From the IMG/VR virus record IMGVR_UViG_3300033068_001745, positions 17,988-81,987 of that record: DNA of 64,000 bases; one strand, written 5' to 3'. The notes beneath the pieces were generated by a model, which made no database searches, was not told where the DNA came from, and saw only the letters and a program-made list of their open reading frames with translations. A program made the translations under genes and the position numbers. Below, in pieces: positions 5,801 through 25,011 of this stretch (positions within the stretch are counted from its first letter, which is position 1; every line of letters starts with the position of its first letter). The stretch comes from a virus. Taxonomy: Duplodnaviria; Caudoviricetes.

Positions 5801-6236
5801 TTTCACTAAAAAGAAAAAAGAATGGTTACTTGCATTTGCTCCAACCAACTATGATGGAAAAGCAAAAGTTACATTTTCGTTAAAGTATGGATATATTATA
5901 GGACAAAATAAACCTGAGCTTCTAACACAATTTTCTGAATGGTTACAAGAACTAACAACTTTACACTTAGATGGAGAGAAATTAAATGTTGAAAGGATAA
6001 ATTCTCTTGGTTTATTAAGTGAGATAATTCATTATGATTTTGAAGATGATAAAAGTAAGAAATCAAATTATGACAGGATAATGAGTATGTTAGGTTGTAT
6101 GATTGCAAAAAGAAATGTTTACAATCAATATGAAGAAAAAATTCTAAAAGAAGATGACAATATTTATTCAGCTTTTAAAAATCGTAAAATGAAAACTCGG
6201 TATAAAACTAAAAGTAAAACATGGATTACTTCTTAG
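2814..6236 (+). CDS. terL: Terminase large subunit (intein-containing precursor; ORF track start is TTG 2787)
   Basis: Walker A GSRSSGK|T restored after intein removal, Walker B VVDECG, nuclease motifs FSCDTY, FEANRG, NYDRIMS; lies before portal. Confidence 0.92.
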   Translation: MTSEEIYENLRFIEDIPLLQITDRSAFLVKHPHYHPSTKQYKQFKIKEYEHCIYGKWGKQKDKWRWIPPMTYLYCNYIKIEMENDKKETVIRLASLDDVEWIIGYAFAACYGFSGFEKEEEFSCDKALIDQYEMILAKRHKERYDSLLKPNGEFKTYITVEDYLYKEHDQDKGKPLWYNEAEDLMIFGSRSSGKMLQLDEIVRTYKGWTAMKDLKIGDLVYGSDGKLSPITFVSEEQTGEYYELTLRDGRKIEACADHLWKVWDKNKNKDPKKENYSVISTKNLFKDYCWDRKDSRKKGEMTKEYRYALPTNEAISEESELPLDPYLLGLLLGDGCITGGTAPSIVSDDNEIIEYCIKQCELNNWSYRINNDKNPTIFFTNKNKEVSLSHILEELNLLGTKSNSKFIPEQYLYSSEKNKMQLLRGLMDTDGTVDKSHIEYYTVSKQLCEDIMNLCRSLGINCNSRIKKTHYKKNGVKIECQDCYRISIFTDKHIFNLKRKQDKIIKGSNRSYSRINKTFIIDIKPVGKRVGKCISVDNYDNTYITRDYIVTHNTFSIIGLCCYLLLMDGTKSISKDWINLDISANIIAGAAGDLPLQEINRRIEVALNCLLTDEDLGVYKAPGIEPIPLIGRHFLGQTNNYLRYRYIVGGRESGGTGSSYRPVSYAANKKGATTSAASTRVALSVVDECGRMPVSIKSIHGSNSALCRRNTKFGVQLMAGTSSSDLDLVQEAKEMFTNPKSFNMHSFRNPYTKEAVSETGLYLPAILVQRAFKDENGNTLVRDVLKYFANRRAKCETPDALREEQLNYPILVEEMWYSRKGSIFNKEQAKKRYQQLLLLKNQGKEETFRRFANLLWNNGKVEVQFINPKEAIKMDNFHESQGSNAAKNKKGDTDTDIIIYEEPEYGKDDMYWFSCDTYVAEEKTEGESLGSIFVFKNPKYIIEGKTGNIVVAEYTGKPDNRDRFYEKLELLMAYYGNPKRSLMFEANRGYDKLVEFFTKKKKEWLLAFAPTNYDGKAKVTFSLKYGYIIGQNKPELLTQFSEWLQELTTLHLDGEKLNVERINSLGLLSEIIHYDFEDDKSKKSNYDRIMSMLGCMIAKRNVYNQYEEKILKEDDNIYSAFKNRKMKTRYKTKSKTWITS
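3396..4472 (+). mobile_element. Class-3 intein (359 aa) with LAGLIDADG endonuclease, inserted in terminase Walker A
   Basis: Begins MLQLDEIVRTYKGWTAMKDLKIGD, block B CADHLW, LLGLLLGDG and LRGLMDTDG motifs, block F GKCISVD, ends VTHN followed by Thr+1. Confidence 0.92.
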
Positions 6237-8848
6237 GAGTACCTGAACTCAGGTTAGCAGAAGAAGAAAAATATGCTGATGATTGTAGGTGGTTTAAAAA
6301 AAATATGGAGTATCACTTGCCGAGTGGTGGAATGACAAACTACTTAACAGCAGCACAGGAAAAAATGGTAAATAATTACCGTTATTTAAATAATGAATTT
6401 GACTTTGGTGACTGGGAGGAAGTTTGTAATGAACTTGGTATTGATGAAACTAATTTTGATACCACTCTATTCAAAGTAAACATTATTCCTGTAATTGTAA
6501 ATTATTTGAAAACAGTTGAATTACGGAGAAATGATACTTACACTCCAATATTACTCACCCAACAAGCAATGGTTGAAAAGGATGAGCAGCTTAAAAATAA
6601 TATTGCTGAATATGTTGAAGGACAACTTTCTGCTGTATTACAAGCTAATCAACAATATCAACAACTATTAATGCAAGCAGCAGATGAAAATGGTCAGGTA
6701 ACTCCAGAACAACAAGCTGAAATTGAGAAACAGGTACAAGCTATTGAACAAGAATTAAGAGCACAATATCCAGTGCCTGTTATTGAAGGGTTTATGAGTG
6801 AAATAGAAATATTAGCTAATAAAATCATACAATACGCAACTTTCAATAATTCAGTAAAATACAAGAAAGTGAAGAATGATTGTTTTGAAGATGTCATTAT
6901 AAATGATGGTGAAATTGTTCGCATTGTAAACACTTATGATGGAGTGGAGTTTGAAAGGGTAAACCTACCTTATTTTTTATGTCATAAATCTCCTGATACA
7001 GAGTATGTGCAAAACAGTATGTGGGTGGCATATACAAAAATGTTTACCTTGTTTCAATTAAAATTAGAGTTTCCTGAATTGGAAGATGATGATTATGCAA
7101 AGTATGGATTGTACACACAAAACATACAAAGCCCTACAATGGATATTAGGACTCACCACCACGATAAATACCCTGAATGGGATACACAGGCACTCATAAC
7201 TAAAGGATTGCCCTACTACGATGAAAAGCAGGGATATGGGTATGGTGAACTTCCTTACATCCATAGGGAGAGGCTTGTGCCAGTAACACACTTTGAATTT
7301 ATTGCTTTTAAGAAAATTGGCTTTCTAAAAACCTATGATGATTTTGGAAAAGAGTTAATGGATTTTGTAGATGAAACATTTATCATTCCTAAAGAAGCTG
7401 TAAAGCAAAAAAGACAAAATCAGTGGGGATTTGAAAGTGAAATTTGGATTTGGGAAAATGCTTCAGTTGAGTTTTTGTGGCTACCAAGAAAATACGAAAT
7501 GTATAGAATTGGTTTAAACTTTTACACAAGAATAAGAGAAGTTCCTTTGCAAGTAATAAACATTGACAATCCTTTTAAATATGAGCTTTCCTATTATGGA
7601 AAATTCCTATCCAATTATAATGCTGAAAGAATCTCTGTGTTTGAAAGGTTAAAACCATACAATGTATTTTTTGTAATTATCTTCAACAAACTTGCTCAAT
7701 TAGCTGAACGTTGGGATGGGTATTTAATTCCACTTGACCCTTCTGCAATTCCAACAGAACTTGGAAATACAGCACAAGAAAGAATGGAAGTATTTTTTAG
7801 AAATAGGAAAGATGGATATTTAATACAAAATAGTTTTGTAGAAGATAAACCTGGGCTTACAAGACCTGCACCTGCTGTTATTCCTGTTGAAATAGGGCAA
7901 ACTTTTCAAGTGCTTATAAATATGCTTAATTGGATTAAAACTGAAATGGGACTAATTGTAGGGGTATCTCCACAAGCTCTTTCCCAAATGATAAGTCAAA
8001 ATGTAGGAGATAATCAAGCTGCCTTACAACAAACTTCTTATATGATAGACCCAACTTTCCAACAGCATAATTGGATATGGCAAGAAGTGATGACAGGGTA
8101 CATCAATACGTTCTTTGAATGGGCTAAAGCTAAATTAGAATCTGGCGGTGAACATAGGCTCACTTATATTTTTGGTGAAAATCAAAGAGAAATGATAAGA
8201 CTTAAACCTGAAAACTTAGAGTTTGCTTATTTAGGTTGTGTAATTAACAATAGTAATCCAAAAGAATGGTTTGACATTATGTTAAGAGAGTCTCAAGCTA
8301 TGATTCAAAATCAAATGCTTACAACGGCAGATTTTGGTAGAATGTTACTTGGTATTCAAAGTGGAGAATCTCCTTATGAAATACAAAAATATTTTATCAA
8401 AGCTCAGAAGGAAAGAGAAGCAAGAGATGCTCAAATACAAGAACAACAAATGAAAGTTGAAGAAATGAAACAAGCAAGTCAAAAAGAAATGATTCAGATT
8501 CAGAAAGATTTAATTAATCTTCAAGAACAATGGAAACAACAACACATTGCAGCAAAAGGAGATATAGACAAAGAAATTGCAGCTATCAAAGTTTATCAAA
8601 ACCAAATGACACTTGATGCTAATGCAGATGGAGTTCCTGACCCTTTAGCAGCAGCGGAATTACAAAGGAAAATACGTGAAGGGGAGACTAAGCTAAACAT
8701 TGAAAAACAGAAAGCTATTACAGAAGCAAGGTCTCAAAGTTTTGAAGAAGTGAAGGAAAGAAATAAACAAATTGAGAATGAGAAAGATAGAAAATTGGAT
8801 TTACAAAAAGAACGTATAAAGGCTAATAACAAAACTAACAAAAAATAA
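6221..8848 (+). CDS. Portal protein (crAss-like), 875 aa
   Basis: Follows terL; size, C-terminal Q/E/K coiled coil and DANADGVPD motif typical of crAss-like portals. Confidence 0.8.
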   Translation: MDYFLGVPELRLAEEEKYADDCRWFKKNMEYHLPSGGMTNYLTAAQEKMVNNYRYLNNEFDFGDWEEVCNELGIDETNFDTTLFKVNIIPVIVNYLKTVELRRNDTYTPILLTQQAMVEKDEQLKNNIAEYVEGQLSAVLQANQQYQQLLMQAADENGQVTPEQQAEIEKQVQAIEQELRAQYPVPVIEGFMSEIEILANKIIQYATFNNSVKYKKVKNDCFEDVIINDGEIVRIVNTYDGVEFERVNLPYFLCHKSPDTEYVQNSMWVAYTKMFTLFQLKLEFPELEDDDYAKYGLYTQNIQSPTMDIRTHHHDKYPEWDTQALITKGLPYYDEKQGYGYGELPYIHRERLVPVTHFEFIAFKKIGFLKTYDDFGKELMDFVDETFIIPKEAVKQKRQNQWGFESEIWIWENASVEFLWLPRKYEMYRIGLNFYTRIREVPLQVINIDNPFKYELSYYGKFLSNYNAERISVFERLKPYNVFFVIIFNKLAQLAERWDGYLIPLDPSAIPTELGNTAQERMEVFFRNRKDGYLIQNSFVEDKPGLTRPAPAVIPVEIGQTFQVLINMLNWIKTEMGLIVGVSPQALSQMISQNVGDNQAALQQTSYMIDPTFQQHNWIWQEVMTGYINTFFEWAKAKLESGGEHRLTYIFGENQREMIRLKPENLEFAYLGCVINNSNPKEWFDIMLRESQAMIQNQMLTTADFGRMLLGIQSGESPYEIQKYFIKAQKEREARDAQIQEQQMKVEEMKQASQKEMIQIQKDLINLQEQWKQQHIAAKGDIDKEIAAIKVYQNQMTLDANADGVPDPLAAAELQRKIREGETKLNIEKQKAITEARSQSFEEVKERNKQIENEKDRKLDLQKERIKANNKTNKK

Positions 8849-9843: not shown

Positions 9844-11544
9844 ATGACAGTGCAAATGGCAAATCGCCAAGCCTATATTCAAATAGGAAACTTAGCTCAA
9901 ATGAAGCTAGGAAAAAACATTACAGGAGATAAGTTAAACCGTTATGTTTTTAATGAAGATACTCCTCACAACTTTGGTGTTAAAGTAAATAAAATCTTTA
10001 CATCCACTTCGAGGTTTTATCCAAAAATGTTCACAAATGCTACCATTGGTAGTGCAGACAAAAACTATTACACCATTGATACAAATTTCTATCAGTGGGA
10101 TTTAGTTGGAGACACTGACTTATTTATTCGTGTTACAAAAGATGTAGATGATATATCTGAAAACACAGCTTTCATTTCTAATGGATTGATTGGTCAAGGT
10201 CAGAAAGAATTCTTTATTGATTTAGATGCTGATTTCTTGTCAGAAAATGAAGTGATTATGTTGGACAACAATGAATACATGTTGGTACTTACCTCTGATG
10301 GTATGGCTAATGGATTGTCCACTCGTTATTCTTGTAAGGTGCAAGGTAGTATGGAAGCACTTGGTGTTCCCGTTGACTTGCTTAAACAAGATAGTACTGT
10401 AAATAGTGTATCTTCTGAACTTCCTGCTTATGGAAACCCTGCTAAACCTGGTCTTGGACAATTTGGTACTATTATTAGATTGAGAAATAGAGTAGGTAAA
10501 TACGGTCGTGAATTCTCTGTTGATGAAGCAACAATCCGTAATGCTATGAAAGCAAATAAAGGAGATGGTAAACTTCCTTCTACAAATGGAATGGGTAGTG
10601 CTACAAAATACCAAATTTCTCCTTCTGATTATGTAAATGGAGCAGTTTTTGCTTTTGGTGCTTGGGACAAATCTTTGAAAGATGGAAAGATGACACCTAT
10701 GAAGAGTGATGGTTTGATGTCATTCTTTGAAATGAAAATTGAGGACATGATTCTCATGGACAGGGAAGTAATGTGTATGTTTGGTAGAGCTTCTACTACT
10801 CAAACCACTACTAATGCAATTGGAGTAAATAGCACTGAAACTCAAAGAGTTGTTGCTCATGGTTTACGTCAATTACAAAAATTTGGTCATTATGCTACTC
10901 ACAATGGACAGTTAACTGTAGATGATTTGCAAAATTATCTGGATGGAGTATTTATGACCCGTGTTGATGAAAAAGACCGTTCTACAGTATTTAATACAGG
11001 AACACTTGGTAAAATCTTCTTGAATCAAATGGTGAACATTGCAGCTCAAGGTTATTTTAATTCTGCAAAAGGAGACCAATTTATTTCTGGAGCAATTAAC
11101 AGTACTCTTGCTAATCCTTTGAAATTTGGATACCAATTTACTCAATGGATTGGATTGAATGGTGTTGAAGTTACTTTCTCTTATGATATGATGAAAGATG
11201 ACAGATACTACTGCCGTACAATGTACACACCGAATAGTACCTATACAATTGACTCTGCACGTTTAGAAATTTTTGACTTTGGTAATACAAATGCAGGTGC
11301 TGAAAATGCTATTCACATGAGTAAAGAGCGTTATGGTGGAGGTTCTAACTGTTCTATGATTGTTGAAGATTGGGCTGAACGCAGACATTGGAGAATTGGT
11401 TGTTTACACCCTTATCAAGGATTCTTGAACACTTCTTCTACTGATGATACTACAGCTAAATATTCTCGTACACTTTCAGGTTCTCCTGTAATTTGGGATA
11501 CCACTCGTATTGGAGTAATAGTTTATGACCCAATGAGTATCTAA
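9844..11544 (+). CDS. Major capsid protein (crAss-like), 566 aa
   Basis: Position in the terL-portal-scaffold-MCP block; motifs YQWDL..D, EVMCMFG, GLRQLQ, VFNTGTLG, IWDTTR; strongly biased codons (cgt, ggt, act). Confidence 0.78.
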   Translation: MTVQMANRQAYIQIGNLAQMKLGKNITGDKLNRYVFNEDTPHNFGVKVNKIFTSTSRFYPKMFTNATIGSADKNYYTIDTNFYQWDLVGDTDLFIRVTKDVDDISENTAFISNGLIGQGQKEFFIDLDADFLSENEVIMLDNNEYMLVLTSDGMANGLSTRYSCKVQGSMEALGVPVDLLKQDSTVNSVSSELPAYGNPAKPGLGQFGTIIRLRNRVGKYGREFSVDEATIRNAMKANKGDGKLPSTNGMGSATKYQISPSDYVNGAVFAFGAWDKSLKDGKMTPMKSDGLMSFFEMKIEDMILMDREVMCMFGRASTTQTTTNAIGVNSTETQRVVAHGLRQLQKFGHYATHNGQLTVDDLQNYLDGVFMTRVDEKDRSTVFNTGTLGKIFLNQMVNIAAQGYFNSAKGDQFISGAINSTLANPLKFGYQFTQWIGLNGVEVTFSYDMMKDDRYYCRTMYTPNSTYTIDSARLEIFDFGNTNAGAENAIHMSKERYGGGSNCSMIVEDWAERRHWRIGCLHPYQGFLNTSSTDDTTAKYSRTLSGSPVIWDTTRIGVIVYDPMSI

Positions 11545-15341: not shown

Positions 15342-15842
15342 ATGTTAAGATATATTCAGGCAGGTATTATAAAATGGGTAACTCCACAAACAATAGCTCA
15401 ACAAGGAAGTTATTCAGGTAAATTTAAAAGTGGGCTTACAGACTTAGTTGCTATTATACAAAGCTATTTTACAGCAGGTTTAATCTCTGTAAATGCTGCT
15501 ACAAATACTACTTCTGGAGTAGTAGAATTTGCCACACTTGCAGAAACTGTTGCAGGAACAGATACTGAGAGAGCTGTAACACCTTCATCTTTAGCACCTT
15601 ACACTGTAGCAATAGCAGTAGCAGGGTGGACAGATGCTGGAGGTGGGATAAGTGAGAAATCTATTGATGGTACAACTCATTTAAGAGGATTGTTCCCTAA
15701 AGCTTATGTATATAGTACAGATGATACAAACTATACTTCTATAGTTTCAACCAGTGTAATTAGAATATCAAACGGTGACATAACTGTAAAAATAGCAACA
15801 ACAGATATACCTGCAAATGGTATTATTGTAATAACTCAATAA
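15342..15842 (+). CDS. Tail fibre/hub-associated protein
   Basis: AATNTTSGVVEFATLAETVAGTDTERAVTPSSL matches the common phage fibre repeat A.....G....AT..E.......AVTP..L. Confidence 0.6.
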   Translation: MLRYIQAGIIKWVTPQTIAQQGSYSGKFKSGLTDLVAIIQSYFTAGLISVNAATNTTSGVVEFATLAETVAGTDTERAVTPSSLAPYTVAIAVAGWTDAGGGISEKSIDGTTHLRGLFPKAYVYSTDDTNYTSIVSTSVIRISNGDITVKIATTDIPANGIIVITQ

Positions 15843-15845
15843 AAT

Positions 15846-16694
15846 ATGTATTACGATTGTGACAAAAAAGCAATAATTATAACACCCTTGGGTATTAAAA
15901 ATAACACAGGTTTACTTTACATTTCTAAGAAATGTTGTGAAAAACCAACGGGATATTTATATTGTAATGAAGAAGCTCAAACTAATATTTTGGGTGTATC
16001 TATCACTGTTGACAATTTACAACAAAATAAAGAAGAACCTCGATTTGATTGCTATTTTGAAGCAAGTTGGGATGAATTTATTGCTGTAAATTTAACAGAT
16101 GTAGCAAGTTTTACAGGCACTAAAACAAATTATTTAAATGGTGTAGTTGATTCTATAGATACTTTAGACCTTTCTTATTTCAACACTACTCATGAAATTT
16201 GGACAAGTATTGCAAATGGAGATAGAAAATATATATTTGACCTTACATTTGTATTGAATAATGGTTTGACTATACATTATGAAATAATTTATATAGTTAA
16301 TGTTCTTTTAGAAAATAGTGATAATTGTAAAATTAAAGATTTCACTAAATCTGTAAGTCATGACTTCACTTGCACAAATACTTTTGGGTGGGAAAATAAT
16401 ATTGGTACTTTTCCTATAGATTTAGAAGATGGGTTTTATACAGTGAGTTACGGTGATATAAATGGATGTTTTGTAGTAGATTGTGAAGAAACCCTCCAAA
16501 AAGCTATTGATGATTTTGTTGAAAAAACATTAGATAAAAATTGCTATTGTTGTAATACAAAGGAAAACTTAGAAGCTAATTTCAACTTGGAAATGTACAT
16601 GTCTGCTTTTACTTCTGATTGTTTAGATTGTTGTCAAAAATGTAATGTTTATTATAAAATGTTAAAAATAACTAAAGGGTGTAAAGACTGCTAA
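15846..16694 (+). CDS. Cys-rich tail-region protein A (paralogue of next gene)
   Basis: 18 Cys in 282 aa; shares YYDC.K..I.ITPL, LEDGFYT and C.DCC.K..Y..L..C..C with 16694-17506. Confidence 0.65.
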   Translation: MYYDCDKKAIIITPLGIKNNTGLLYISKKCCEKPTGYLYCNEEAQTNILGVSITVDNLQQNKEEPRFDCYFEASWDEFIAVNLTDVASFTGTKTNYLNGVVDSIDTLDLSYFNTTHEIWTSIANGDRKYIFDLTFVLNNGLTIHYEIIYIVNVLLENSDNCKIKDFTKSVSHDFTCTNTFGWENNIGTFPIDLEDGFYTVSYGDINGCFVVDCEETLQKAIDDFVEKTLDKNCYCCNTKENLEANFNLEMYMSAFTSDCLDCCQKCNVYYKMLKITKGCKDC

Positions 16695-17506
16695 TGGAAG
16701 TATATTATGATTGTACAAAAGATAGAATTGTTATTACACCTCTTATAGAAAGTATAATTGAGATTGGTGTAAAGAAAGGTTGTGGTGAAGAAATTACAAC
16801 TACAACCTATTGTAATGGTGAAAATGTGAATTTCATAAATGCTGAAGGATTTGTATCAAATTACGAAATTTATTATGACCCTGGATGTCCTGACCCTCCT
16901 GGTTCAGGATGTAATACTTGTCCACAATATTCTCAGTTTAATTATGGAGTGAATATAAACATTGGAAATATTGTGTCAGTGAGTGGTACAGTTACAACCA
17001 TTATAGATGGATTTACTACTGTAACAAACATTACAAACATGTCTTATTTCAATGCTGCACATTCTGCTCAATCTTATACAGAATTTCAAATAGAATATGA
17101 TTTAAACTTTGTTTGCACAAATGGAATAGTTTTTCATTTCAACAGTTTAATTTATTCAGATGGGCAATTTTGTGAAATGGATGATTATCGCATAGATGAT
17201 TCATTTGACTATGAATGTTCTAAAGAGTATATGAACGATGGTGAAAATTCATATGTTAAAATTGTACTTGAAGATGGGTTTTATACAGCACTTGTAAATG
17301 GAGAATATTTTTGCTTTTTAGCGGAGTGTTCCTCTTTAGAATGTAGAGTGTACAAAACTTTAGATTTTTGTTGTGATGATTGTACAGATAAAAACTCAGA
17401 AGCATTTTTCTTGTATCAAATGTTTTTAACTTGTAAAGATTGTTGTACAAAAAACACTCTTTATAGAAAACTAAATGCTTTATTAAACAAGTGTAGTACT
17501 TGTTAA
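16694..17506 (+). CDS. Cys-rich tail-region protein B
   Basis: 20 Cys in 270 aa; TAATG overlap with A; same shared blocks. Confidence 0.65.
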   Translation: MEVYYDCTKDRIVITPLIESIIEIGVKKGCGEEITTTTYCNGENVNFINAEGFVSNYEIYYDPGCPDPPGSGCNTCPQYSQFNYGVNINIGNIVSVSGTVTTIIDGFTTVTNITNMSYFNAAHSAQSYTEFQIEYDLNFVCTNGIVFHFNSLIYSDGQFCEMDDYRIDDSFDYECSKEYMNDGENSYVKIVLEDGFYTALVNGEYFCFLAECSSLECRVYKTLDFCCDDCTDKNSEAFFLYQMFLTCKDCCTKNTLYRKLNALLNKCSTC

Positions 17507-17518
17507 ACTAAATTTAAT

Positions 17519-17602
17519 ATGTGTGAAGACATACAAAAATATTTAGCAGGACAATGTGCAGATAAGTATTACATGTATTGGTTATTAATCACCGTAAACT
17601 AG
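17519..17602 (+). CDS. Possible 27-aa micro-ORF MCEDIQKYLAGQCADKYYMYWLLITVN
   Basis: Fills the intergenic gap; preceded by AACTAA like other genes; below ORF-track cutoff. Confidence 0.35.
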   Translation: MCEDIQKYLAGQCADKYYMYWLLITVN

Positions 17603-17609
17603 ATTTGTT

Positions 17610-18020
17610 ATGAAAGAACTTTTGTTGAATGAACAATTTCTAACAGCAGTTATAGGAGTAATCATAGCATTTTTCTTTGGGCAAACAGGCATATTAAAAA
17701 CATGGTTTGATAAAATATTTATATCTAAAGAAAAGCGAGAGCTTGCTATATTAGAAGAAAAGAAAAGAGCTCAAGATTTGGCAATTCAAGCTGAAGAAAA
17801 GGAAGCTGCTAGATTTACTGCTTTAGAAAAGGAAAAGGAAGACCTTAGAGCACAAATAAAGACTCTTCAAGAGTCAATTGCTAAACTTGATAAAGATTTA
17901 GTAAAAACAACAATATATGTTAATACACTATTAGCTTTTCTTGAAAATGCCATACCTGAAGGAAATAATGCCTTCATTGTACAAATGGCTTCTGAAATAA
18001 GAAAGGAGAATAATAAATGA
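17610..18020 (+). CDS. Single-TM, coiled-coil membrane protein (holin-like)
   Basis: N-terminal TM FLTAVIGVIIAFFFGQTGIL followed by a long K/E/A/L heptad coil. Confidence 0.5.
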   Translation: MKELLLNEQFLTAVIGVIIAFFFGQTGILKTWFDKIFISKEKRELAILEEKKRAQDLAIQAEEKEAARFTALEKEKEDLRAQIKTLQESIAKLDKDLVKTTIYVNTLLAFLENAIPEGNNAFIVQMASEIRKENNK

Positions 18021-18460
18021 TAGACACGAAAATCCACCAAAATGTTATTTTAAAATTAGGTGCAATTTTACTCATGAAACAAAGTGCAAATGTCATAGAA
18101 ATTGGAGAACATCTTCAAAAAACAGGTATAGATGATGCTTCAACAGGAGGCTTTTGGTTATATGGGTATAACGTACATGATTGTTATTTATCTGACAAAT
18201 TCATTAGCTCTTTGGGGTATTCTCGTGAAGAAGTTCCGCACAGTGTGGATTTCTTTTACAAAACTGCTGAAAATACAAGTCTTAATAAAAGTTTTGAAAT
18301 GATAGATGAACTTGTTACTGAGCAGTCAGAAAAATGTTTTATTAACTATTTAGATTATAAGACAAAGGATGGAGAAACAATTAAGGTGGAATGTACTGGC
18401 ACTGTCATTTATTCTTTTGGAAAACCTCTCATAGTAATAGGAACACATGATATAGTTTAA
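18017..18460 (+). CDS. Stand-alone PAS (PAS_3-like) domain protein
   Basis: ASTGGFWLY..YLSDKFISSLGYSREE..DYKTKDGETIKVECTG..GKPLIVIGTHDI follows the PAS_3 pattern GIW.W..S..F..LGY..EE..YR..KDG...G.P..MIG.H.DI. Confidence 0.8.
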   Translation: MIDTKIHQNVILKLGAILLMKQSANVIEIGEHLQKTGIDDASTGGFWLYGYNVHDCYLSDKFISSLGYSREEVPHSVDFFYKTAENTSLNKSFEMIDELVTEQSEKCFINYLDYKTKDGETIKVECTGTVIYSFGKPLIVIGTHDIV

Positions 18461-18477
18461 GAAATAAAAAAATCGTT

Positions 18478-18504
18478 AAAGGAAAGGTAACTTTCCTTTT
18501 TTTT
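18478..18504 (+). terminator. Intrinsic terminator
   Basis: AAAGGAAAG-GTAA-CTTTCCTTT hairpin (GNRA loop) plus an 8-T run. Confidence 0.8.
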
Positions 18505-18523
18505 ATATTTAACTAATTTTGAA

Positions 18524-19168
18524 TTGACAATAGGCGAAATAACTTCGACTTATAGAACTATGATAAGAGAAAGACAACAAACCTGTTCTCTTAATACTTT
18601 GGAGCTATATCTACTGATAAATAGCTGTGCTAATAAAATAAAACAGGAAGTTTTAGATAAAAAGCATAAACTTGGTTTTAAAAATTATAAAACCATTACA
18701 GTAGATTTAGATGAAGTAATTTTTAAAGATTCTTGCCAACCATCTTGGCTTGGCTGTAAAGTATTGAAATCTACCTATCCTATACCAAATGTTTTGACAA
18801 ATTCTGACAGGTTTGAGATGTATGTATATAGTGGGCAAAAATTGATAAGTCCATTTAATTTTATTCATGGTAAGAGGCTCTCCTCACATCCTATGATGAA
18901 TAGTTTTTATGACATCATCGATAACTATCTATATATTTTTAAAAACCTTGAATTAGAGTGTATTACAATACAAGGTGCTTGGGAAGATGTAACTCAACTA
19001 CAAGACATTATAGGAAGCAATAACAATCCTTGCTACAATCCTCTTACAGATGACTATCCTTTAGATAGTCAATATATTCCTATATTATATAGTATGTTAG
19101 ACAGAGAGCTAAATTACTATGTAAAAACTAAAGAAGATGATAATAGCAATGAAAGAAATAAAGAATAA
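18524..19168 (+). CDS. Tail ring/adaptor protein (crAss-like)
   Basis: TTG start; M.IGEI.S..R N-terminus and C.....DDYPLD...I..L C-terminus typical of crAss ring proteins. Confidence 0.55.
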   Translation: MTIGEITSTYRTMIRERQQTCSLNTLELYLLINSCANKIKQEVLDKKHKLGFKNYKTITVDLDEVIFKDSCQPSWLGCKVLKSTYPIPNVLTNSDRFEMYVYSGQKLISPFNFIHGKRLSSHPMMNSFYDIIDNYLYIFKNLELECITIQGAWEDVTQLQDIIGSNNNPCYNPLTDDYPLDSQYIPILYSMLDRELNYYVKTKEDDNSNERNKE

Positions 19169-19631: not shown

Positions 19632-20437
19632 AACCTATTAGCTACGTTTATAGCTATATAAATATACCACAGAACGAGTGGAATGATTTAAATGTTGATA
19701 TATGGCTTTATAATGCAATGAAGTCTTTGAAAATATGTCTAAAGCAACAAAATACAAAACTTGTAACCATTGAAAATCATAAAGCATGTTTTTGTGATGA
19801 ATATGAAACAATACAAGCTGTTGTACTAAGAGAAGATGTCAAAAGTGTGGAAGAACTAAAAGACTTTCCTGTTGTTGATGGGAGTTATATAGTTCCTGCT
19901 GCTGATTACCCGATTGTACAGCAAACCTTAAATGACCAAATCTATGCCATATATCCACTATTACCTTACTACTTTCCTAATAATGACCAGAGGGTAAATG
20001 ACATTTGGTATTGGGCAAAACCTCGTAAAGTAATTTTTGAAAAGCAATGTGAACATTGTCCTACCTATTGTAATGATTGTGAATATGTTTATGACCTTAG
20101 TTTAGATGGTTGTCTATATTTTCCACAAGTAGAAAAAGGGGTTACTTGTATAAATTATCTTACCTATCCAAAACTTGAAGAGTACATGATAGATGATAAT
20201 AATCAAGCACTTATAGATGCTTTAGCTTCTTATGTGATGAAAAACTATTATGAAATTAAATTACAAATGGATTTTACTCAAGCCAATAAATATTTGTATG
20301 AAACTTATAATGAAAAATGGATTGTATTTAAAAAACATGCTCAAGTATCAGACATGTTGTTAAGTTTAGACATTAACAAAATAGCAAATATAATGAATAA
20401 CAAAATGAGTAAAATGCTACGAACTATTAAAAGATGA
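19628..20437 (+). CDS. Tail tubular protein (P22 gp4-like)
   Basis: Position between IHF-like gene and stabilisation protein; C-terminal DALASYVMK..W...K. Confidence 0.55.
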   Translation: MKPISYVYSYINIPQNEWNDLNVDIWLYNAMKSLKICLKQQNTKLVTIENHKACFCDEYETIQAVVLREDVKSVEELKDFPVVDGSYIVPAADYPIVQQTLNDQIYAIYPLLPYYFPNNDQRVNDIWYWAKPRKVIFEKQCEHCPTYCNDCEYVYDLSLDGCLYFPQVEKGVTCINYLTYPKLEEYMIDDNNQALIDALASYVMKNYYEIKLQMDFTQANKYLYETYNEKWIVFKKHAQVSDMLLSLDINKIANIMNNKMSKMLRTIKR

Positions 20438-23400
20438 GATTATATAACCAAAAGAAAATAAGTCCTGATAACACTTATCTTTATGCTTTAAATATGGTTA
20501 ATAAAAGTGAAGGAGCTGAGGATGAATTACAAGATGAAGCAGGTAATGTGGAATGTATAGACATACCAAATGGTTATAAAGTGTTGGGAACAGTTGAAAC
20601 TCCCAAAAAGAAAACTTTTCTGTTCTTGCAAGGGAGTACCTTTAAAATTTGGCAAGTTGTTCAATGTAAGCATGTAGAAATATTAGATACAACTGATTTT
20701 ACTTATTCTTTACCTATAAAAGGAGAATATAGAATAATTAATGAAAATCAAGAACTTTTGTATTTCTATGATGGGAGTTCTCCTGACAGATATTTTAATA
20801 TTTCTCACCCTGAATATCATACTTATGCTGATAGCTTTTTATTAAAACCTAATTTTCAAACCCCTACAATCAGACTTGTAGATTTGGTTGAATCTGGAGG
20901 TAATTTACCTTCTTCTGCATATTCAATAAAAGCTCGTTATGTTGACAACATAGGTAATGTAACAGATTGGTTTTCAGAAACTCTCCCATATCCTATATCA
21001 TCTTTAGGGAGTTTCAATAGTCCTATTACTGTAGAAGGAGTGGATTTAAACACACCTACAACAAAAGCTCTTGTATATAAAATGTGGAACTTGGATACAA
21101 ATTATCCATTTGTAGAAATAGCTGTAAATAAATATACAGATGAAAACACTGTACAAAGTTTTTCTTACGGGAAATTTAAAACAGCAGATGACTTTCAAGT
21201 AAGCATAACTTCCATTAACAATTTATCTCTTATTCCTTATGAAACTACCACTGTAAGCACCACTAAATATGAAAGTAGTGGTGTAATGTTGCAAAGTGAT
21301 AATAGACTTCTTAGAGGAAATTTAAAAGAGAAAAACATAGATTGGGGTAAGTTTCAACAAAAAGCCAATGACATTGAGGTAAATTATGTAATAGGAGAGC
21401 CTATTTATGATATGGCTTCTTACTTTGAAACAGACCCTGTTATGACAAATGGCACTGTAAATTATAATGGAGGAAATAAAAGTGGGTATGCTTATACAAA
21501 TAAATCTTTAATGAGAGATGAAGTTTATGCTGTTGGTATTGTGTGGATATTTTCAGATGGTTCTGAAAGTCCTGTTTTTCATATTCCAGGTAGGAAGAAA
21601 AATAAATATGCTAATGGTTCAGATGCTCCTATTATAGAACCAAATACTCACAATAGAATAGCCCCAACTTCTGATTGGGACACTTCAGTATATACATGTT
21701 CAAGTTATTCAGATGCAGATGTTTATGCAAATTCTACTACAACAGCAACTAATTTTGAAAGGTGGCAAGTATATAACACTGCTTGGTATGATGACCCTGG
21801 AGTTACAGATAGAGAACTTGCTTATTATGAATGTAGAGATTCAAGCAATGACCCTATCAATTATCCCGATGATTTAGATTGTGATGGAAATAGAATATAT
21901 CCTGAAGGAGCTATAAGACATTGTAAAACTCCTGACACTACTTTAGAGAAACATTACGGATTCAACGGATTTGTCTATTACACCAATCCTTTATACTTTA
22001 GTTTTAATAATATCATTGCTCCTATAGGTTATGATGTAATAGCTTATAAAATTGTTATTGGGGATAGAACAAATGACAAAACAGTTGTGGATAAAGGTAT
22101 TTTATCCACTATTTTGCAACAGCAATATCAACAAAATTTGGTTAATGCAGTGACTCCTGGTAATAAAGATATAAAAGACCAATTTTTTCAAAGTATGCAA
22201 TTTAGTCACGATAATCAAACCCCTAAAAGTTATAGTTTACAAACTACTAAAAGATGGAATGCAACTGGTGGAGACCAAGCATTCATAGCAATGCCAGCTT
22301 GTAGTGATGTAGTAGCTTATCAGCAAGAAAATTGTGAAGAATTATCTAATTTTCCTACAAGAACAGCTTTACCTTTAGTTGGGTATCATTCTCCTCTTAC
22401 AAAACTTAAAGGTAGTGAAGTAAATGGTAGTCATGTAAAGTGGGAAAGAGAAATTTATACTTCACTTACAGAAGGGGTAGCACCTTATAACACTGTTTGT
22501 AATGAACATTTTTATGTATTGAATAACCGCAAGAAATATAAAAACAGAGAAACTAAAAATGTTCTTACTACAAATGTGTATTATCGGTTTGAAAATACAT
22601 ATATTCCTTTTAATACTTTAACAAATAGAATTATAACAAATGCTACTTACATAGATGCTGATAGTACTTACAATGGGGAAACTCAAATTGAGACAGCTAA
22701 TGTTCCTGCATTTGATGCAAGTTTCAATAATAAAACTCAACAAGAAGTTACTGTTTTACAAGTAGAAGGTAGTAAGGATTCCCCAATAAGTCTTTATAGA
22801 GCTGACGAAGATGGTTTATTTACCATATTTTCTGATGGTACAGATAAAGCTCAATGGACTACGCCTGGAACATATACTCATGCTATAAGATTTACTACTT
22901 TACCTGGTATTCCTGATATATGGACTAATGGAGGATGGATGAGTCATAATTATGTAGCTATAAAAAGATATAAATCAGATTGTTACAGAGACCTTACAAA
23001 AATAAAATATGTGGATTATAGCAACATTGTTTGGCAAAATGATGAAGATGTATTAACCCCTGCATGTTTAGTGGCAGCAGGAGATATATTTATATGTAGG
23101 TTTGCCTTCAGACAAACATTTTATGGGTATGTTCCTCATGCAGGAAACTATAGTGGTATAAACTTGTTTAGACAAGATGGTGGTTCCACTGGAGGAAAAG
23201 ATTTATATTCACAAACATGTGATGCTGTGAATACTGAAGTAAATGCAATATTTGAATCTAAAATCATTGACACCTACTATGAAAGTGAAGTAAACATAGA
23301 ATGGAGAGAACATAATGATGATATTTGGAATAACACTTATTTCAAAGATGATGATGCTGCTAAAAAGAGTGAACAATATGATGCTCCCAATGCAGTAGTG

Positions 23401-25011
23401 AGACCTAATTTATTCTTTCCAAAATATTACGGAAATAAAGGAAGAAGTTATTTAACTTTAGAGCTTGATAGTAATGCTATTAGCAGATTAACAGACCAAG
23501 GGGTTTGGAAATTTTACGAGCTTTTTAAAAACTACTATAAACTGAATGATGTTTATAGTGTTAAGTTTCCTAATTACAGGCTTTATCCTCTTGAAGAATT
23601 TAGGTGTGATGTGAATTTATTTCCAAATAGATTAATTTGGTCTGAAAAAGCCAACAATGAAGAAAAAAAAGATACCTACAGAAAATTCTTAGCAAACAAT
23701 TATAAAGATATTGAGGGTAACACTTCTAACATCACTGATGTTTTTGAAAAGAAAGGAGCTATTTATGTTCACACTAATGAGAGTCTTTATAGTTTACCAA
23801 GAACAAGTGAACAAATACAAACAAGTGGGTTGTCCGCTACAATAGGAACAGGAGAATATTTATCTTTACCTCCAATGCAACTTGTAAACAGCACTTATAA
23901 TTATGCAGGTCAGCAAGGTAGATTTAATAGAATAAATACAGAATATGGAGTTTTCTTTTGTAATCAGGAACAAGGAGTTATTTATAATTTTGGAGAAACT
24001 CTTCAAACTATTAGTGATGATTTACAACTATGGTTTTACAACAATTTACCAAGTGAATTGAATGAATTGTTTAGAAAGAATTTTGATGTAAATTATCCTT
24101 TGTTGGACAACATCATTGATGGTGTAGGAATCCAAAGTACAATAGACTATAACTTAGATAGATGGATACTACATAAAAGAGATTATTTACCTATTAAACC
24201 TTTGGAAATTTATGACCCTCTTGGTGTATCTGACCCTCAAGTACTCTATTTTGCTTATGAAATTACTATAGATGGTAAAGACTACACTAATGTATTTGTT
24301 TCATATAATGATGAAGTATATACAATACATCCTTTTACTTCAGATATATTTGAAAATAAATCATGGACACTTTCTTATGATATGAGTAAGAAAAGTTGGA
24401 TTTCTTATCACACTTATCAGCCTAATTGGATGTATCAAGATGGTAGTACGTTTTACACTTTAGATGAAGATATTTGGAAACATGATGGTGGGTTACAAAG
24501 AACTTTTTACGGAAACACTTATGATGCGAGAATTGAATGGCAAATTAGTAAACAAAGAGAAATAATAGATAGTATTCAATATATAATGAACGTTGAGGTT
24601 TATGATAATGTCACTAAAAGATGGATAGAAGCCTACGGAGATTTCTCAAAAGGATTTATATACAATACTTATCAAAGTACACTGATGTTCGATATTCAAA
24701 GTGATATAAACTACACTTGGTCAGATTTAGTGAAAAATGTTAGCACAAGAGAAAGAGTTAGGAGAATAAATGGGTTTAGACAACTTAACACTACAAGCTC
24801 AGTACTTGATTCAAGTTGGACTGCTTTAAATGCTGATTATCAAGGATATGAACCCTACACTGCTTATAATGAAACCTATGTACAAAACTATTCAACTATG
24901 TACCCTTTAAGAGATATTTATACAAATGCCAGAATGTATTTTCAAAAGGATAATATCTACAGAATGAGATGGCAAACATCTAATACTCAGACAACTAAAT
25001 CAGATATATGA
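20434..25011 (+). CDS. Tail stabilisation/muzzle protein (P22 gp10-like), 1525 aa
   Basis: Motifs SLMRDEVYAVGI.WIF.DG.ESPVFHIPGR, R.I.S....E.KD..R.FLANNY.D, WTLSYD..K.W.SYH typical of crAss stabilisation proteins. Confidence 0.75.
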   Translation: MRLYNQKKISPDNTYLYALNMVNKSEGAEDELQDEAGNVECIDIPNGYKVLGTVETPKKKTFLFLQGSTFKIWQVVQCKHVEILDTTDFTYSLPIKGEYRIINENQELLYFYDGSSPDRYFNISHPEYHTYADSFLLKPNFQTPTIRLVDLVESGGNLPSSAYSIKARYVDNIGNVTDWFSETLPYPISSLGSFNSPITVEGVDLNTPTTKALVYKMWNLDTNYPFVEIAVNKYTDENTVQSFSYGKFKTADDFQVSITSINNLSLIPYETTTVSTTKYESSGVMLQSDNRLLRGNLKEKNIDWGKFQQKANDIEVNYVIGEPIYDMASYFETDPVMTNGTVNYNGGNKSGYAYTNKSLMRDEVYAVGIVWIFSDGSESPVFHIPGRKKNKYANGSDAPIIEPNTHNRIAPTSDWDTSVYTCSSYSDADVYANSTTTATNFERWQVYNTAWYDDPGVTDRELAYYECRDSSNDPINYPDDLDCDGNRIYPEGAIRHCKTPDTTLEKHYGFNGFVYYTNPLYFSFNNIIAPIGYDVIAYKIVIGDRTNDKTVVDKGILSTILQQQYQQNLVNAVTPGNKDIKDQFFQSMQFSHDNQTPKSYSLQTTKRWNATGGDQAFIAMPACSDVVAYQQENCEELSNFPTRTALPLVGYHSPLTKLKGSEVNGSHVKWEREIYTSLTEGVAPYNTVCNEHFYVLNNRKKYKNRETKNVLTTNVYYRFENTYIPFNTLTNRIITNATYIDADSTYNGETQIETANVPAFDASFNNKTQQEVTVLQVEGSKDSPISLYRADEDGLFTIFSDGTDKAQWTTPGTYTHAIRFTTLPGIPDIWTNGGWMSHNYVAIKRYKSDCYRDLTKIKYVDYSNIVWQNDEDVLTPACLVAAGDIFICRFAFRQTFYGYVPHAGNYSGINLFRQDGGSTGGKDLYSQTCDAVNTEVNAIFESKIIDTYYESEVNIEWREHNDDIWNNTYFKDDDAAKKSEQYDAPNAVVRPNLFFPKYYGNKGRSYLTLELDSNAISRLTDQGVWKFYELFKNYYKLNDVYSVKFPNYRLYPLEEFRCDVNLFPNRLIWSEKANNEEKKDTYRKFLANNYKDIEGNTSNITDVFEKKGAIYVHTNESLYSLPRTSEQIQTSGLSATIGTGEYLSLPPMQLVNSTYNYAGQQGRFNRINTEYGVFFCNQEQGVIYNFGETLQTISDDLQLWFYNNLPSELNELFRKNFDVNYPLLDNIIDGVGIQSTIDYNLDRWILHKRDYLPIKPLEIYDPLGVSDPQVLYFAYEITIDGKDYTNVFVSYNDEVYTIHPFTSDIFENKSWTLSYDMSKKSWISYHTYQPNWMYQDGSTFYTLDEDIWKHDGGLQRTFYGNTYDARIEWQISKQREIIDSIQYIMNVEVYDNVTKRWIEAYGDFSKGFIYNTYQSTLMFDIQSDINYTWSDLVKNVSTRERVRRINGFRQLNTTSSVLDSSWTALNADYQGYEPYTAYNETYVQNYSTMYPLRDIYTNARMYFQKDNIYRMRWQTSNTQTTKSDI

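Follow-up and report, generated by a model that had tools for sequence, protein, structure and literature searches.

A translationally coupled gene pair in a crAss-like phage from wastewater encodes a membrane-tethered coiled-coil protein (ORF A) and a stand-alone PAS protein (ORF B), and we put at about even the chances that the two constitute a lysis-timing module in which ORF B controls ORF A, with ORF A serving as a holin or as a holin/endolysin accessory. The pair lies in the window, i.e. the whole 64,000-nucleotide stretch of DNA that was analysed. Both genes are present exactly as an earlier note on this DNA had given them, sharing ATGA at 18017-18020. The features referred to below are:

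15342-17506: fibre-like genes, 5' of the ORF A-ORF B pair
17507-17609, plus strand: intergenic spacer upstream of ORF A, 103 nt
17610-18020, plus strand: ORF A, 136 aa, membrane-tethered coiled coil, predicted N-out/C-in
17631-17696, plus strand: ORF A TM helix, residues 8-29, with the conserved motif FFFGxxG(I/L)
17889-17999, plus strand: ORF A conserved C-terminal block, residues 94-130, DKDL..TIY..TLLA.LE...PEG.N.FI..MA.EI
18017-18460, plus strand: ORF B, 147 aa, cytoplasmic stand-alone PAS protein
18017-18145, plus strand: ORF B helical N-cap, residues 1-43, with conservation equal to that of the PAS core
18146-18457, plus strand: ORF B PAS core, residues 44-147, in which C126 is invariant and C56 and H144 nearly so
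18478-18504, plus strand: intrinsic-terminator-like hairpin and T-run, 9-bp stem and 4-nt loop (hairpin plus T-run at 18478-18499)
18524-19168: crAss ring protein 2, 3' of the pair (PF25702, 46.6 bits)

The structural module around the pair is that of Crassvirales, with the portal (phrog_6547, E 9e-64), capsid (phrog_11589, E 3e-20), ring protein 2 (CrAss_Ring_2) and muzzle families all represented, the last by a match of PF25731 (crAss_MUZ) to the homologous gene of the relative L003. The nearest cultured relative of ring protein 2 is that of phi14:2 (Steigviridae). ORF A-ORF B has the fibre-like genes on one side and ring protein 2 on the other and precedes the muzzle protein gene, and its earlier placement inside the tail operon is therefore correct.

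ORF B matches Pfam PAS_3 (PF08447) at 33.1 bits (gathering threshold 25.6, E 7e-8) and TIGR00229 at 23.4 bits (cut-off 22.9), and its homologues give the same PAS_3 match. Its AlphaFold2 model (pLDDT 92, pTM 0.85) has a 43-residue helical N-cap followed by the PAS core, where the elements Abeta, Bbeta, helices, Gbeta, Hbeta and Ibeta follow one another in a five-stranded PAS fold. Structure search of 18017-18460, the check proposed in the earlier note, showed that this fold is real: at E <= 0.001 the model matched over 375 PDB chains of PAS/LOV proteins (best 3mr0_A, 2.8e-7). The ORF B profile gave no match to PDB sequences at E <= 0.01. The protein has no membrane segment (maximum 19-mer hydropathy 1.25) and no signal peptide. 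Conserved positions in the N-cap are H7, N9, L12-G15, G30, T36 and D39; judging from how PAS N-caps generally behave, this segment may act in dimerisation or output.

Two more specific identities for ORF B were rejected. In LOV photoreceptors the cysteine that forms the adduct lies on the E-alpha helix, within a GXNCRFLQ motif; the corresponding stretch of ORF B reads SVDFFYKTAEN, without a Cys, and because the flavin-binding NCRFLQ motif is missing ORF B is not a LOV protein. Short stand-alone PAS/LOV proteins such as PpSB1-LOV and DsLOV, which are among its top structural matches, resemble it in having a single PAS core with helical extensions as the only output, but differ from it in this flavin-binding cysteine motif. 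The replacement of HPDD by TAEN agrees with what we take to be the PAS_3 consensus. ORF B is also not a VqmA-type PAS transcription factor, as residue 147, in the last PAS strand, is the end of the chain and no C-terminal helix-turn-helix follows. The statement that PAS domains are uncommon in phages stands only in part, since BFVD contains a dozen phage PAS-fold proteins and PAS proteins occur beside endolysins in cultured Bacteroidota phages.

ORF A has one N-terminal membrane helix followed by a long helix, in line with its description as a single-TM coiled-coil protein. The best 19-residue hydrophobic window covers residues 11-29 (Kyte-Doolittle mean 2.1), and the AlphaFold2 model (pLDDT 84) contains a helix at 8-23, a continuous helix at 28-114 and a last helix at 121-135. 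Conservation in the family alignment peaks in the C-terminal block, which spans the end of the long helix, the turn and the last helix, whereas the charged linker preceding it is variable in length; the block is likely to be an interaction surface and may form the interface with a partner. The membrane anchor is kept in every family member. The flanks of the TM helix are acidic on the N-side and K/R-rich on the C-side in nearly all 19 members, and the positive-inside rule thus favours the predicted N-out/C-in topology. With this charge distribution, and with neither a signal peptide nor a TM segment in ORF B, both soluble parts would be cytoplasmic.

Profile searches gave ORF A a full-length but sub-threshold match to DUF2730 (PF10805; 20.1 bits against a gathering threshold of 24.9, E 7e-4), in which residues 10-95 align to positions 2-91 of the 102-position profile. 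Four of eight ORF A members match DUF2730 at E <= 0.01 (best E 2.3e-4). ORF A also matches phrog_1397 (E 2e-4), and Foldseek of its model against the PDB gave zero matches. Holin families in Pfam and PHROG gave no match at a meaningful E-value (best phrog_1296, E 0.15). The term holin-like is therefore justified by architecture, i.e. a TMD and a charged hydrophilic C-terminus, but not by membership of a known holin family; position in a lysis cassette, also typical of holins, is seen in relatives and not in the window. Likening the pair to the sensor half of a histidine kinase found no support, as ORF A lacks an H-box, an ATPase domain and any conserved or invariant His, there is no HisKA/HATPase_c Pfam match, and its likeness to DHp hairpins is a generic long-helix resemblance.

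The combination of an N-terminal TM and a long coiled coil is also that of Rz, and ORF A matches phrog_739 (Rz-like spanin) weakly, at E 0.039. If it were an i-spanin-type protein, its N-terminus would be inside and its coiled coil would bridge the periplasm to the outer membrane. We regard this identity as extremely improbable and rejected it: the charge distribution predicts the opposite, C-in topology, there is no gene for an o-spanin lipoprotein within or after ORF A, the partner encoded downstream is a cytoplasmic PAS protein without a lipobox, and a u-spanin-like protein is already present in the cassettes of relatives.

In the mechanism that we propose, the N-terminal helix of ORF A would anchor the protein in the inner membrane with its short acidic N-terminus outside, and a coiled-coil stalk of roughly 13 nm would carry the conserved C-terminal helical knob in the cytoplasm. 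ORF B would be a cytoplasmic PAS sensor, kept at a fixed ratio to ORF A by translational coupling, and would bind ORF A, most likely through contact between its N-cap and the ORF A C-terminal block. A cytoplasmic cue (metabolite, redox or energy state) would then cause ORF B to toggle ORF A between inert and active forms. Active ORF A would set the lysis time at the membrane, either by acting itself as a one-TMD holin or by assisting or holding back the holin/endolysin system as an accessory, in the manner of an antiholin or of Mu gp25 releasin. Co-folding of ORF B with ORF A residues 30-136, using their own alignments, was neutral on binding (score 0.02, mark 0.32). A stronger version, in which the pair is a split 'sensor holin', i.e. 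the one-TMD protein itself forms holes or triggers the holin under the control of a ligand- or redox-binding PAS protein, is possible but rather doubtful.

Both families are tiny, with about 20 representatives in 1.84 billion proteins. ORF B has nine homologues in 5.8 billion proteins, all of 145-149 aa and all in a phage context, and no relatives in 185,579 GTDB reference genomes. GenBank phages gave no DNA match and no match to either protein at E <= 0.001 (noise only at E <= 10), and IMG/VR contains only one close relative. An ORF B homologue lies directly 3' of ORF A, overlapping or abutting it, in nine of ten decidable contexts, a count that covers only those ORF A contexts that could be read, with profile checks added. 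The nine comprise the crAss group (window, L001, L003-L006), L002/L008, L007, L009/L010, L011/L012, L014/L015, L017, L018 and the contig of P0020. The phages that carry the pair differ considerably in build: one is crAss-like and has ring and muzzle proteins, another is represented by a contig of 48.7 kb in which NinB/YqaJ genes occur, and a further contig encodes a tape measure of the CIS type. The pair of a TM-coiled-coil protein and a PAS protein is thus strongly co-conserved in other phages, the point that the earlier note had asked to be tested.

A fibre or tailspike gene always precedes ORF A, and in L013 an ORF A homologue without a PAS partner sits between two fibre-like genes. Together with weak coiled-coil matches to scaffold families, these observations would fit ORF A being a virion-assembly or tail-fibre-associated factor with a structural or chaperone role. 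We consider this highly improbable. A membrane anchor conserved in every member is unusual for fibre chaperones, the scaffold matches are sub-threshold and confined to the charged coiled coil, and an analogous protein of phi14:2, g078 (see below), is absent from the virion proteins detected by MS although its neighbours are detected.

Outside the crAss lineage the pair heads lysis cassettes, in which A and B are followed by a small multi-TM holin-like protein, a u-spanin-like protein and a GH19 or CHAP endolysin. In L012 A and B are followed by a 2-TM protein of 91 aa and then by a protein of 195 aa whose lipoprotein-like signal at the N-terminus and TM at the C-terminus give it the u-spanin architecture. 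Next come a GH19 endolysin (38.1 bits in Pfam; phrog_181 E 1e-67) and a 3-TM protein of 100 aa. In L014 A and B precede a 3-TM protein of 106 aa and three more membrane proteins, after which come a 213-aa protein that combines the lipobox LVSGC with a TM at the C-terminus, and an endolysin of the GH19 type (phrog_181 E 3e-42). The L009 cassette ends with a CHAP endolysin (27.4 bits). An endolysin is found within about five genes of the pair in L009, L012 and L014, but not in the window, and these three endolysins are not SAR-type because their N-termini are hydrophilic. In L017 a homologue of the L014 3-TM protein lies upstream rather than downstream of A-B, and the adjacency has therefore outlasted a change in gene order. 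The presence of lysis genes beside the pair in unrelated phages makes lysis timing the best available reading, and to that extent supports the earlier suggestion that the pair gates a membrane effector. The suggestion that this effector is ORF A acting as the holin fares less well, since better holin candidates are adjacent in relatives, so that ORF A need not be the holin, and since there is no endolysin near the pair in the window. Accessory genes frequently land between tail-fibre genes and the lysis cassette, so that adjacency to lysis genes alone is no proof.

No endolysin, holin or spanin was recognisable in the 64 kb window plus 18 kb upstream, i.e. the 82-kb record, whose estimated completeness is only 40%. 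When the relatives' holin-like, u-spanin-like and endolysin proteins were searched by tblastn against the window and the record, only A and B homologues matched. Pfam identified a cytosine methylase, an intein-laden ribonucleotide reductase, a GIY-YIG nuclease and DUF5856 among the window's other small genes, and no lysis enzyme.

In the window ORF A-ORF B is a self-contained unit, and as reported earlier it has its own terminator, whose 9-bp hairpin is retained in L003 through compensatory changes in both arms. There is an A-run on the other side of the hairpin, and the terminator could therefore act in both directions. The spacer upstream of ORF A is 97-99% identical in alignments to relatives L001 and L003. 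We looked for a promoter in it and rejected the candidates. The sequence TAGATTTG at 17600-17607, 2 nt before the ORF A ATG, fits the Bacteroidota -7 box TAnnTTTG, but this motif occurs in the AT-rich window at chance frequency (99 found against 114 expected), and TAGATTTG is therefore no evidence for a promoter. Sigma-70-like sites were at shuffle level, and the RNA fold of the spacer was no better than that of shuffles (z -0.04). Contigs from four metatranscriptome-labelled wastewater/sludge runs were scattered across 15.3-20.5 kb, including A, B and the spacer; they are of low depth and may be DNA carry-over, so that starts, ends and levels cannot be read from them.

The conserved spacer, the terminator and the lack of a nearby lysis gene in the window fit a 'moron' gene. 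The pair might accordingly be a mobile accessory membrane-sensor pair unrelated to lysis, with a role in superinfection exclusion, host takeover or defence/counter-defence. It would settle where insertion is tolerated, after the tail-fibre genes, and so often next to a lysis cassette. Movement between unrelated phage types would suit such a cassette, as would the behaviour of ORF B, the alleles of which diverge far more than those of ORF A between near-identical phages (ORF B dS 0.19-0.94 against 0.04-0.24 in the flanks). Allele replacement is usual for genes in host-phage conflict, and this divergence is unexpected under a simple fixed A-B interface. However, in phages outside the crAss lineage the pair lacks a spacer and terminator of its own and abuts or overlaps the upstream fibre gene and the downstream holin-like gene, its adjacency to the 3-TM holin-like protein is kept despite the altered gene order, and independent TM-coiled-coil-PAS proteins adjoin endolysins in cultured Bacteroidota phages. 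On balance we judge an accessory role of this kind unlikely, though the likeliest alternative to lysis timing.

The earlier note had also offered a decoy function, in which ORF B would pair with the PAS domains of host sensor kinases and blunt two-component signalling, with ORF A as a membrane tether. PAS domains commonly heterodimerise, ORF B has no output domain, and a language model places small PAS_3 proteins of bacteria nearest to it. If ORF B mimicked a host kinase domain it should resemble one, however, and no close cellular homologue was found, either in the reference genomes or among its uniformly short, phage-context relatives; a search for fused or longer forms (262-2000 aa) found none, which is weak evidence. 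The strict linkage to ORF A argues against a decoy, which would also leave the linkage to lysis genes unexplained. We found no support for this function and consider it very unlikely.

The lysis-timing reading gains a cultured point of comparison in Cellulophaga phage phi14:2 (NC_021806), in which g078, a 209-aa protein named 'PAS fold protein', unites a TM at its N-terminus with a coiled coil and a PAS domain in one chain. On one side of its gene are structural genes proven by MS, on the other the ring-2 homologue, and it overlaps the gene for g077, a GH19 endolysin. Its PAS domain belongs to the PAS_4 type (22.8 bits, threshold 23.1). A homologue, gp249 of Chryseobacterium phage MA9V-2, is encoded near a GH108 endolysin, a lipoprotein and a u-spanin-like protein. 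Like ORF A-ORF B, g078 belongs to a crAss-like phage of a Bacteroidota host, occupies the same genomic position, combines TM, coiled coil and PAS, and overlaps its downstream neighbour; in phi14:2, however, the three elements are fused and the endolysin is adjacent, whereas in the window they are split over two genes and the endolysin is absent. No homology of g078 to A or B was detectable with hhalign (probabilities 15% and 0.3%), and g078 is therefore an analogue rather than a proven relative.

One of the known systems closest to ORF A is Mu gp25 releasin (DUF2730), a membrane-tethered cytoplasmic lysis protein with N-out/C-in topology, for which the criteria are a gene within about five genes of the endolysin and, for the tested mechanism, a SAR endolysin partner (PMC9239132). 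Both proteins are small, with an N-terminal TMD, an N-out/C-in topology (predicted for ORF A) and a helical cytoplasmic domain, and gp25, though not a holin in the classical sense, regulates the lysis machinery at the step of release or activation. The tested function of gp25 is SAR endolysin release, whereas the endolysins beside ORF A relatives are soluble and lack SAR-type N-termini, so that the Mu mechanism is not directly transferable. In addition, DUF2730 is restricted to Mu-like phages of Proteobacteria, and releasins have no PAS partner.

In T4 lysis inhibition, sensors (the antiholins RI and RIII) act on a one-TMD holin, T, the gene for which, like ORF A-ORF B, follows tail-fibre genes and lies far from the endolysin gene. 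T differs in its topology, which is the opposite one, with a large domain in the periplasm, where RI detects superinfection, and the T4 system has no PAS domain and no sequence similarity to ORF A-ORF B. P1 LydA/LydB and lambda S105/S107 each combine a holin with a dedicated inhibitor on one transcript; LydB and S107 lack a sensor fold, in contrast to the PAS protein here, and neither is known to respond to a small-molecule or redox cue. Vibriophage VP882 encodes VqmA(Phage), a PAS-HTH transcription factor that controls a lysogeny-to-lysis switch (PMC8284805). VqmA(Phage), the counterpart of ORF B, is a phage PAS sensor that ties a chemical cue to host killing, but it has a DNA-binding domain. 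ORF B has none and is encoded with late membrane proteins, and any control that it exerts would therefore be post-translational and at the membrane. A literature search for PAS domains in holin or lysis-cassette contexts, or for crAss-like lysis genes, found no relevant paper.

Phage lysis timing is thought to be governed mainly by a holin accumulation clock, and to our knowledge none of the few known modifiers (antiholins, T4 lysis inhibition, Mu releasin) relies on a ligand-sensing fold of the classical kind. If the lysis-timing reading is true, the coupling of a PAS sensor to a membrane lysis protein would provide a direct post-translational route from host physiology to bursting. The crAss-like and other Bacteroidota phages are dominant in gut and wastewater viromes and persist unusually without lysogeny, and lysis in them is, as far as we know, almost unstudied. 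With phi14:2 there is a cultured relative that has an analogous fused protein by its endolysin, so the question is testable now, and the two halves of the split pair are small, fold well and can be used separately in screens for binding and ligands; if real, a ligand-gated lysis switch would also be of use as a tool. Should the pair be a sensor holin, the phage would read the metabolic or energy state of the cell and choose its moment of lysis post-translationally and, together with the fused TM-coiled-coil-PAS proteins beside endolysins, it would represent a widespread, undescribed class of signal-gated lysis clocks.

The 82-kb record that holds the window comes from an uncultured crAss-like phage and is only ~40% complete by the CheckV estimate, and the genome is therefore an unusually large one for a crAss-like phage. 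Thirteen studies have wastewater or activated-sludge runs in which near-identical DNA occurs. The two genes studied here, ORF A (a membrane-anchored coiled-coil protein) and ORF B (a stand-alone PAS protein), have these neighbours:

6221-8848, portal (phrog_6547, E 9e-64)
9844-11544, major capsid protein
15342-15842, tail-collar-fibre-like gene
15846-17506, two cysteine-rich paralogues between the tail-collar-fibre-like gene and ORF A
5' of ORF A, a spacer of 103 nt, 97-99% conserved
17610-18020 (+), ORF A
18017-18460 (+), ORF B
18478-18499, hairpin plus T-run 3' of ORF B
18524-19168, crAss ring protein 2 (PF25702, 46.6 bits)
then two small genes between ring protein 2 and the muzzle protein
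20434-25011, muzzle protein (PF25731 on the homologue in L003, a related crAss-group locus)
past the muzzle protein, giant cargo and RNA-polymerase-like genes

As the earlier note had claimed, ORF A and ORF B are joined by a shared ATGA overlap and followed by a terminator of their own, i.e. the hairpin at 18478-18499; in L003 base changes in the two arms compensate each other and preserve it. A Bacteroidota -7 promoter box (TAnnTTTG) occurs at 17600-17607 and 18514-18521, 2 nt before the start codons of ORF A and ring protein 2; these sites may mean nothing, because the motif is present in the window at chance frequency (99 observed versus 114 expected). The adjacent cysteine-rich paralogues (15846-16694, 282 aa; 16694-17506, 270 aa) both have a YYDC.K..I.ITPL start motif and C-terminal CC..C clusters, and neither matched a family in Pfam or PHROG. 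In L002, another locus with an ORF A relative, the gene pair is flanked on both sides by fibre-like genes with similarly Cys-containing N-termini. Further along the window, a single ORF of 5321 aa (30355-46320) occupies the cargo/virion RNA polymerase region, and a ribonucleotide reductase gene (57818-62501, minus strand) is broken by an intein and LAGLIDADG/homing-endonuclease domains, with a separate 158-aa C-terminal piece split off.

The PAS assignment of ORF B is sound. The protein scored 33.1 bits against PAS_3 (threshold 25.6) and was marginally over the cut-off for TIGR00229, and its AlphaFold2 model (pLDDT 92) matched more than 375 PAS/LOV chains, bearing out the fold proposed from sequence. 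The accompanying proposal that no output domain stands beside the PAS domain also held for ORF B, in which we found neither a membrane segment nor the LOV flavin-cysteine motif. The N-cap (residues 1-43) is helical and equals the core in conservation; across the family C126 is invariant, and C56 and H144 are nearly so. In contrast, the well-known phage PAS sensor VqmA of VP882 is a transcription factor and has a DNA-binding domain (PMC8284805); ORF B contains none.

We compared ORF B (window 18017-18460) with its counterparts in near-identical phages (L001 6001-6444 and L003 4141-4587); no other stretch has diverged as much between them. For ORF B, dS was 0.19 (L001) and 0.94 (L003), compared with 0.04-0.24 for ORF A and ring protein 2, and its dN/dS was 0.19-0.32. 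Together these values point to the replacement of whole alleles by recombination, with purifying selection afterwards. Such swapping suggests a sensor tuned to host or niche, but would also fit a conflict gene.

ORF A consists of a hydrophobic helix (residues 8-29), a single unbroken helix (28-114), a PEGxN turn and a final helix (121-135). In its family (n=19) a short acidic segment precedes the membrane helix and a Lys/Arg-rich one follows it; the positive-inside rule thus predicts a stalk in the cytoplasm, the compartment also required for ORF B. The charged middle of the stalk differs in length between members; the conserved parts are the membrane helix (FFFGxxG) and a C-terminal block (DKDL..TIY..TLLA.LE...PEG.N.FI..MA.EI). 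The only family signals for ORF A were sub-threshold, i.e. a near-full-length match to DUF2730 (20.1 bits versus 24.9, with four of eight members matching) and a match to phrog_1397, a family without known function.

Members of either family are very rare: when 1.84 billion proteins were searched exhaustively with a profile, the ORF A family came to ~20 cluster representatives, and a search of 5.8 billion proteins gave nine ORF B homologues of 145-149 aa. No match to either was found in GenBank phages, nor to ORF B in 185,579 reference genomes. The earlier note had asked whether the pair is co-conserved. When every ORF A context that could be fetched was considered, an ORF B homologue lay directly 3' of ORF A in nine of the ten decidable contexts, with an overlap of 1-11 nt in nearly all paired cases. 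The sole exception (L013) has an ORF A homologue without a PAS partner between two fibre-like genes; this stretch (L013 6001-6808) encodes the 128-aa homologue, which overlaps a 709-aa fibre gene at that gene's end; another fibre-like gene comes next.

Beyond the crAss lineage, the pair stands at the head of lysis cassettes with no spacer or terminator:

L012: ORF A, ORF B, 91-aa two-TM protein, 195-aa u-spanin-like protein, GH19 endolysin, 100-aa three-TM protein
L009: cassette ending in a CHAP endolysin
L014: ORF A, ORF B, 106-aa three-TM protein, three further membrane proteins, 213-aa lipobox protein, GH19-type endolysin

The L012 endolysin scored 38.1 bits for GH19 (phrog_181, E 1e-67). 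The 195-aa protein of L012 combines a lipoprotein-type signal with a C-terminal TM, i.e. the unimolecular-spanin architecture known from phage T1; in the 213-aa protein of L014 the lipobox is canonical (LVSGC) and the TM is likewise C-terminal. In a further locus, L017, a homologue of the L014 three-TM protein lies 5' of the pair; the adjacency is thus retained despite the changed order. Proteins of 195-213 aa at L012 4830-5417, L014 7859-8500 and L002 8428-9036 share an N-terminal signal of lipoprotein type, a central coiled coil and a C-terminal TM; none matched a family, and Bacteroidota-type phages may therefore have a u-spanin family that is as yet undescribed. The window contains no recognisable lysis enzyme. 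There the pair seems to stand as a unit of its own, and accessory genes are known to land at the fibre-lysis junction; an accessory function unrelated to lysis therefore keeps a modest share of the probability.

Among cultured phages, ring protein 2 of the window has its nearest relative in Cellulophaga phage phi14:2 (Crassvirales, Steigviridae), where g078-g077-g076 (L021 3933-5687) occupy the equivalent position, with structural genes confirmed by proteomics on one side and ring 2 on the other. The 209-aa g078, annotated 'PAS fold protein', unites in one chain what is divided between ORF A and ORF B (N-terminal TM helix, coiled coil, PAS domain). It overlaps g077, a GH19 endolysin; g076 has an N-terminal TM. 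The listed virion proteins do not include g078. No sequence homology to ORF A or ORF B was detectable (hhalign 15% and 0.3%), and g078 is therefore an analogue in architecture and position, not a proven fusion of the two. A g078 homologue occurs in Chryseobacterium phage MA9V-2 (L022 3519-4127), in the gene row GH108 endolysin, lipoprotein, TM-coiled-coil-PAS protein, TM-coiled-coil protein, u-spanin-like protein. Thus three separate Bacteroidota-type lineages have a membrane-tethered coiled coil and a PAS domain beside lysis genes.

The most economical reading, drawn throughout from gene neighbourhood, is that the pair is a lysis-control module. ORF B would be a cytoplasmic sensor and ORF A its membrane-bound effector or adaptor, and the signal read by ORF B would set the timing of the membrane step in lysis. 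Within the lysis-control reading, the evidence is divided as to whether ORF A is the holin itself or a lysis accessory. The phi14:2 endolysin adjoins no other obvious holin, and in T4, too, the one-TMD holin gene comes after the tail-fibre genes and a long way from that of the endolysin, as would suit a holin. Classical two- or three-TM holin candidates are already present in the L012 and L014 cassettes, which would suit an accessory, as would the nearest (sub-threshold) family of ORF A, that of Mu releasin. Releasin is cytoplasmic but tethered to the membrane, and it promotes the release of endolysin without forming holes (PMC9239132). The releasin mechanism is not transferable unchanged, because the endolysins next to ORF A relatives lack SAR domains. 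We found no paper in which PAS proteins are described as belonging to lysis cassettes. The observation of the pair is itself solid, its putative mechanism is plausible among phage lysis regulators, and phi14:2, with its g078 analogue, is a cultured system at hand for the question.
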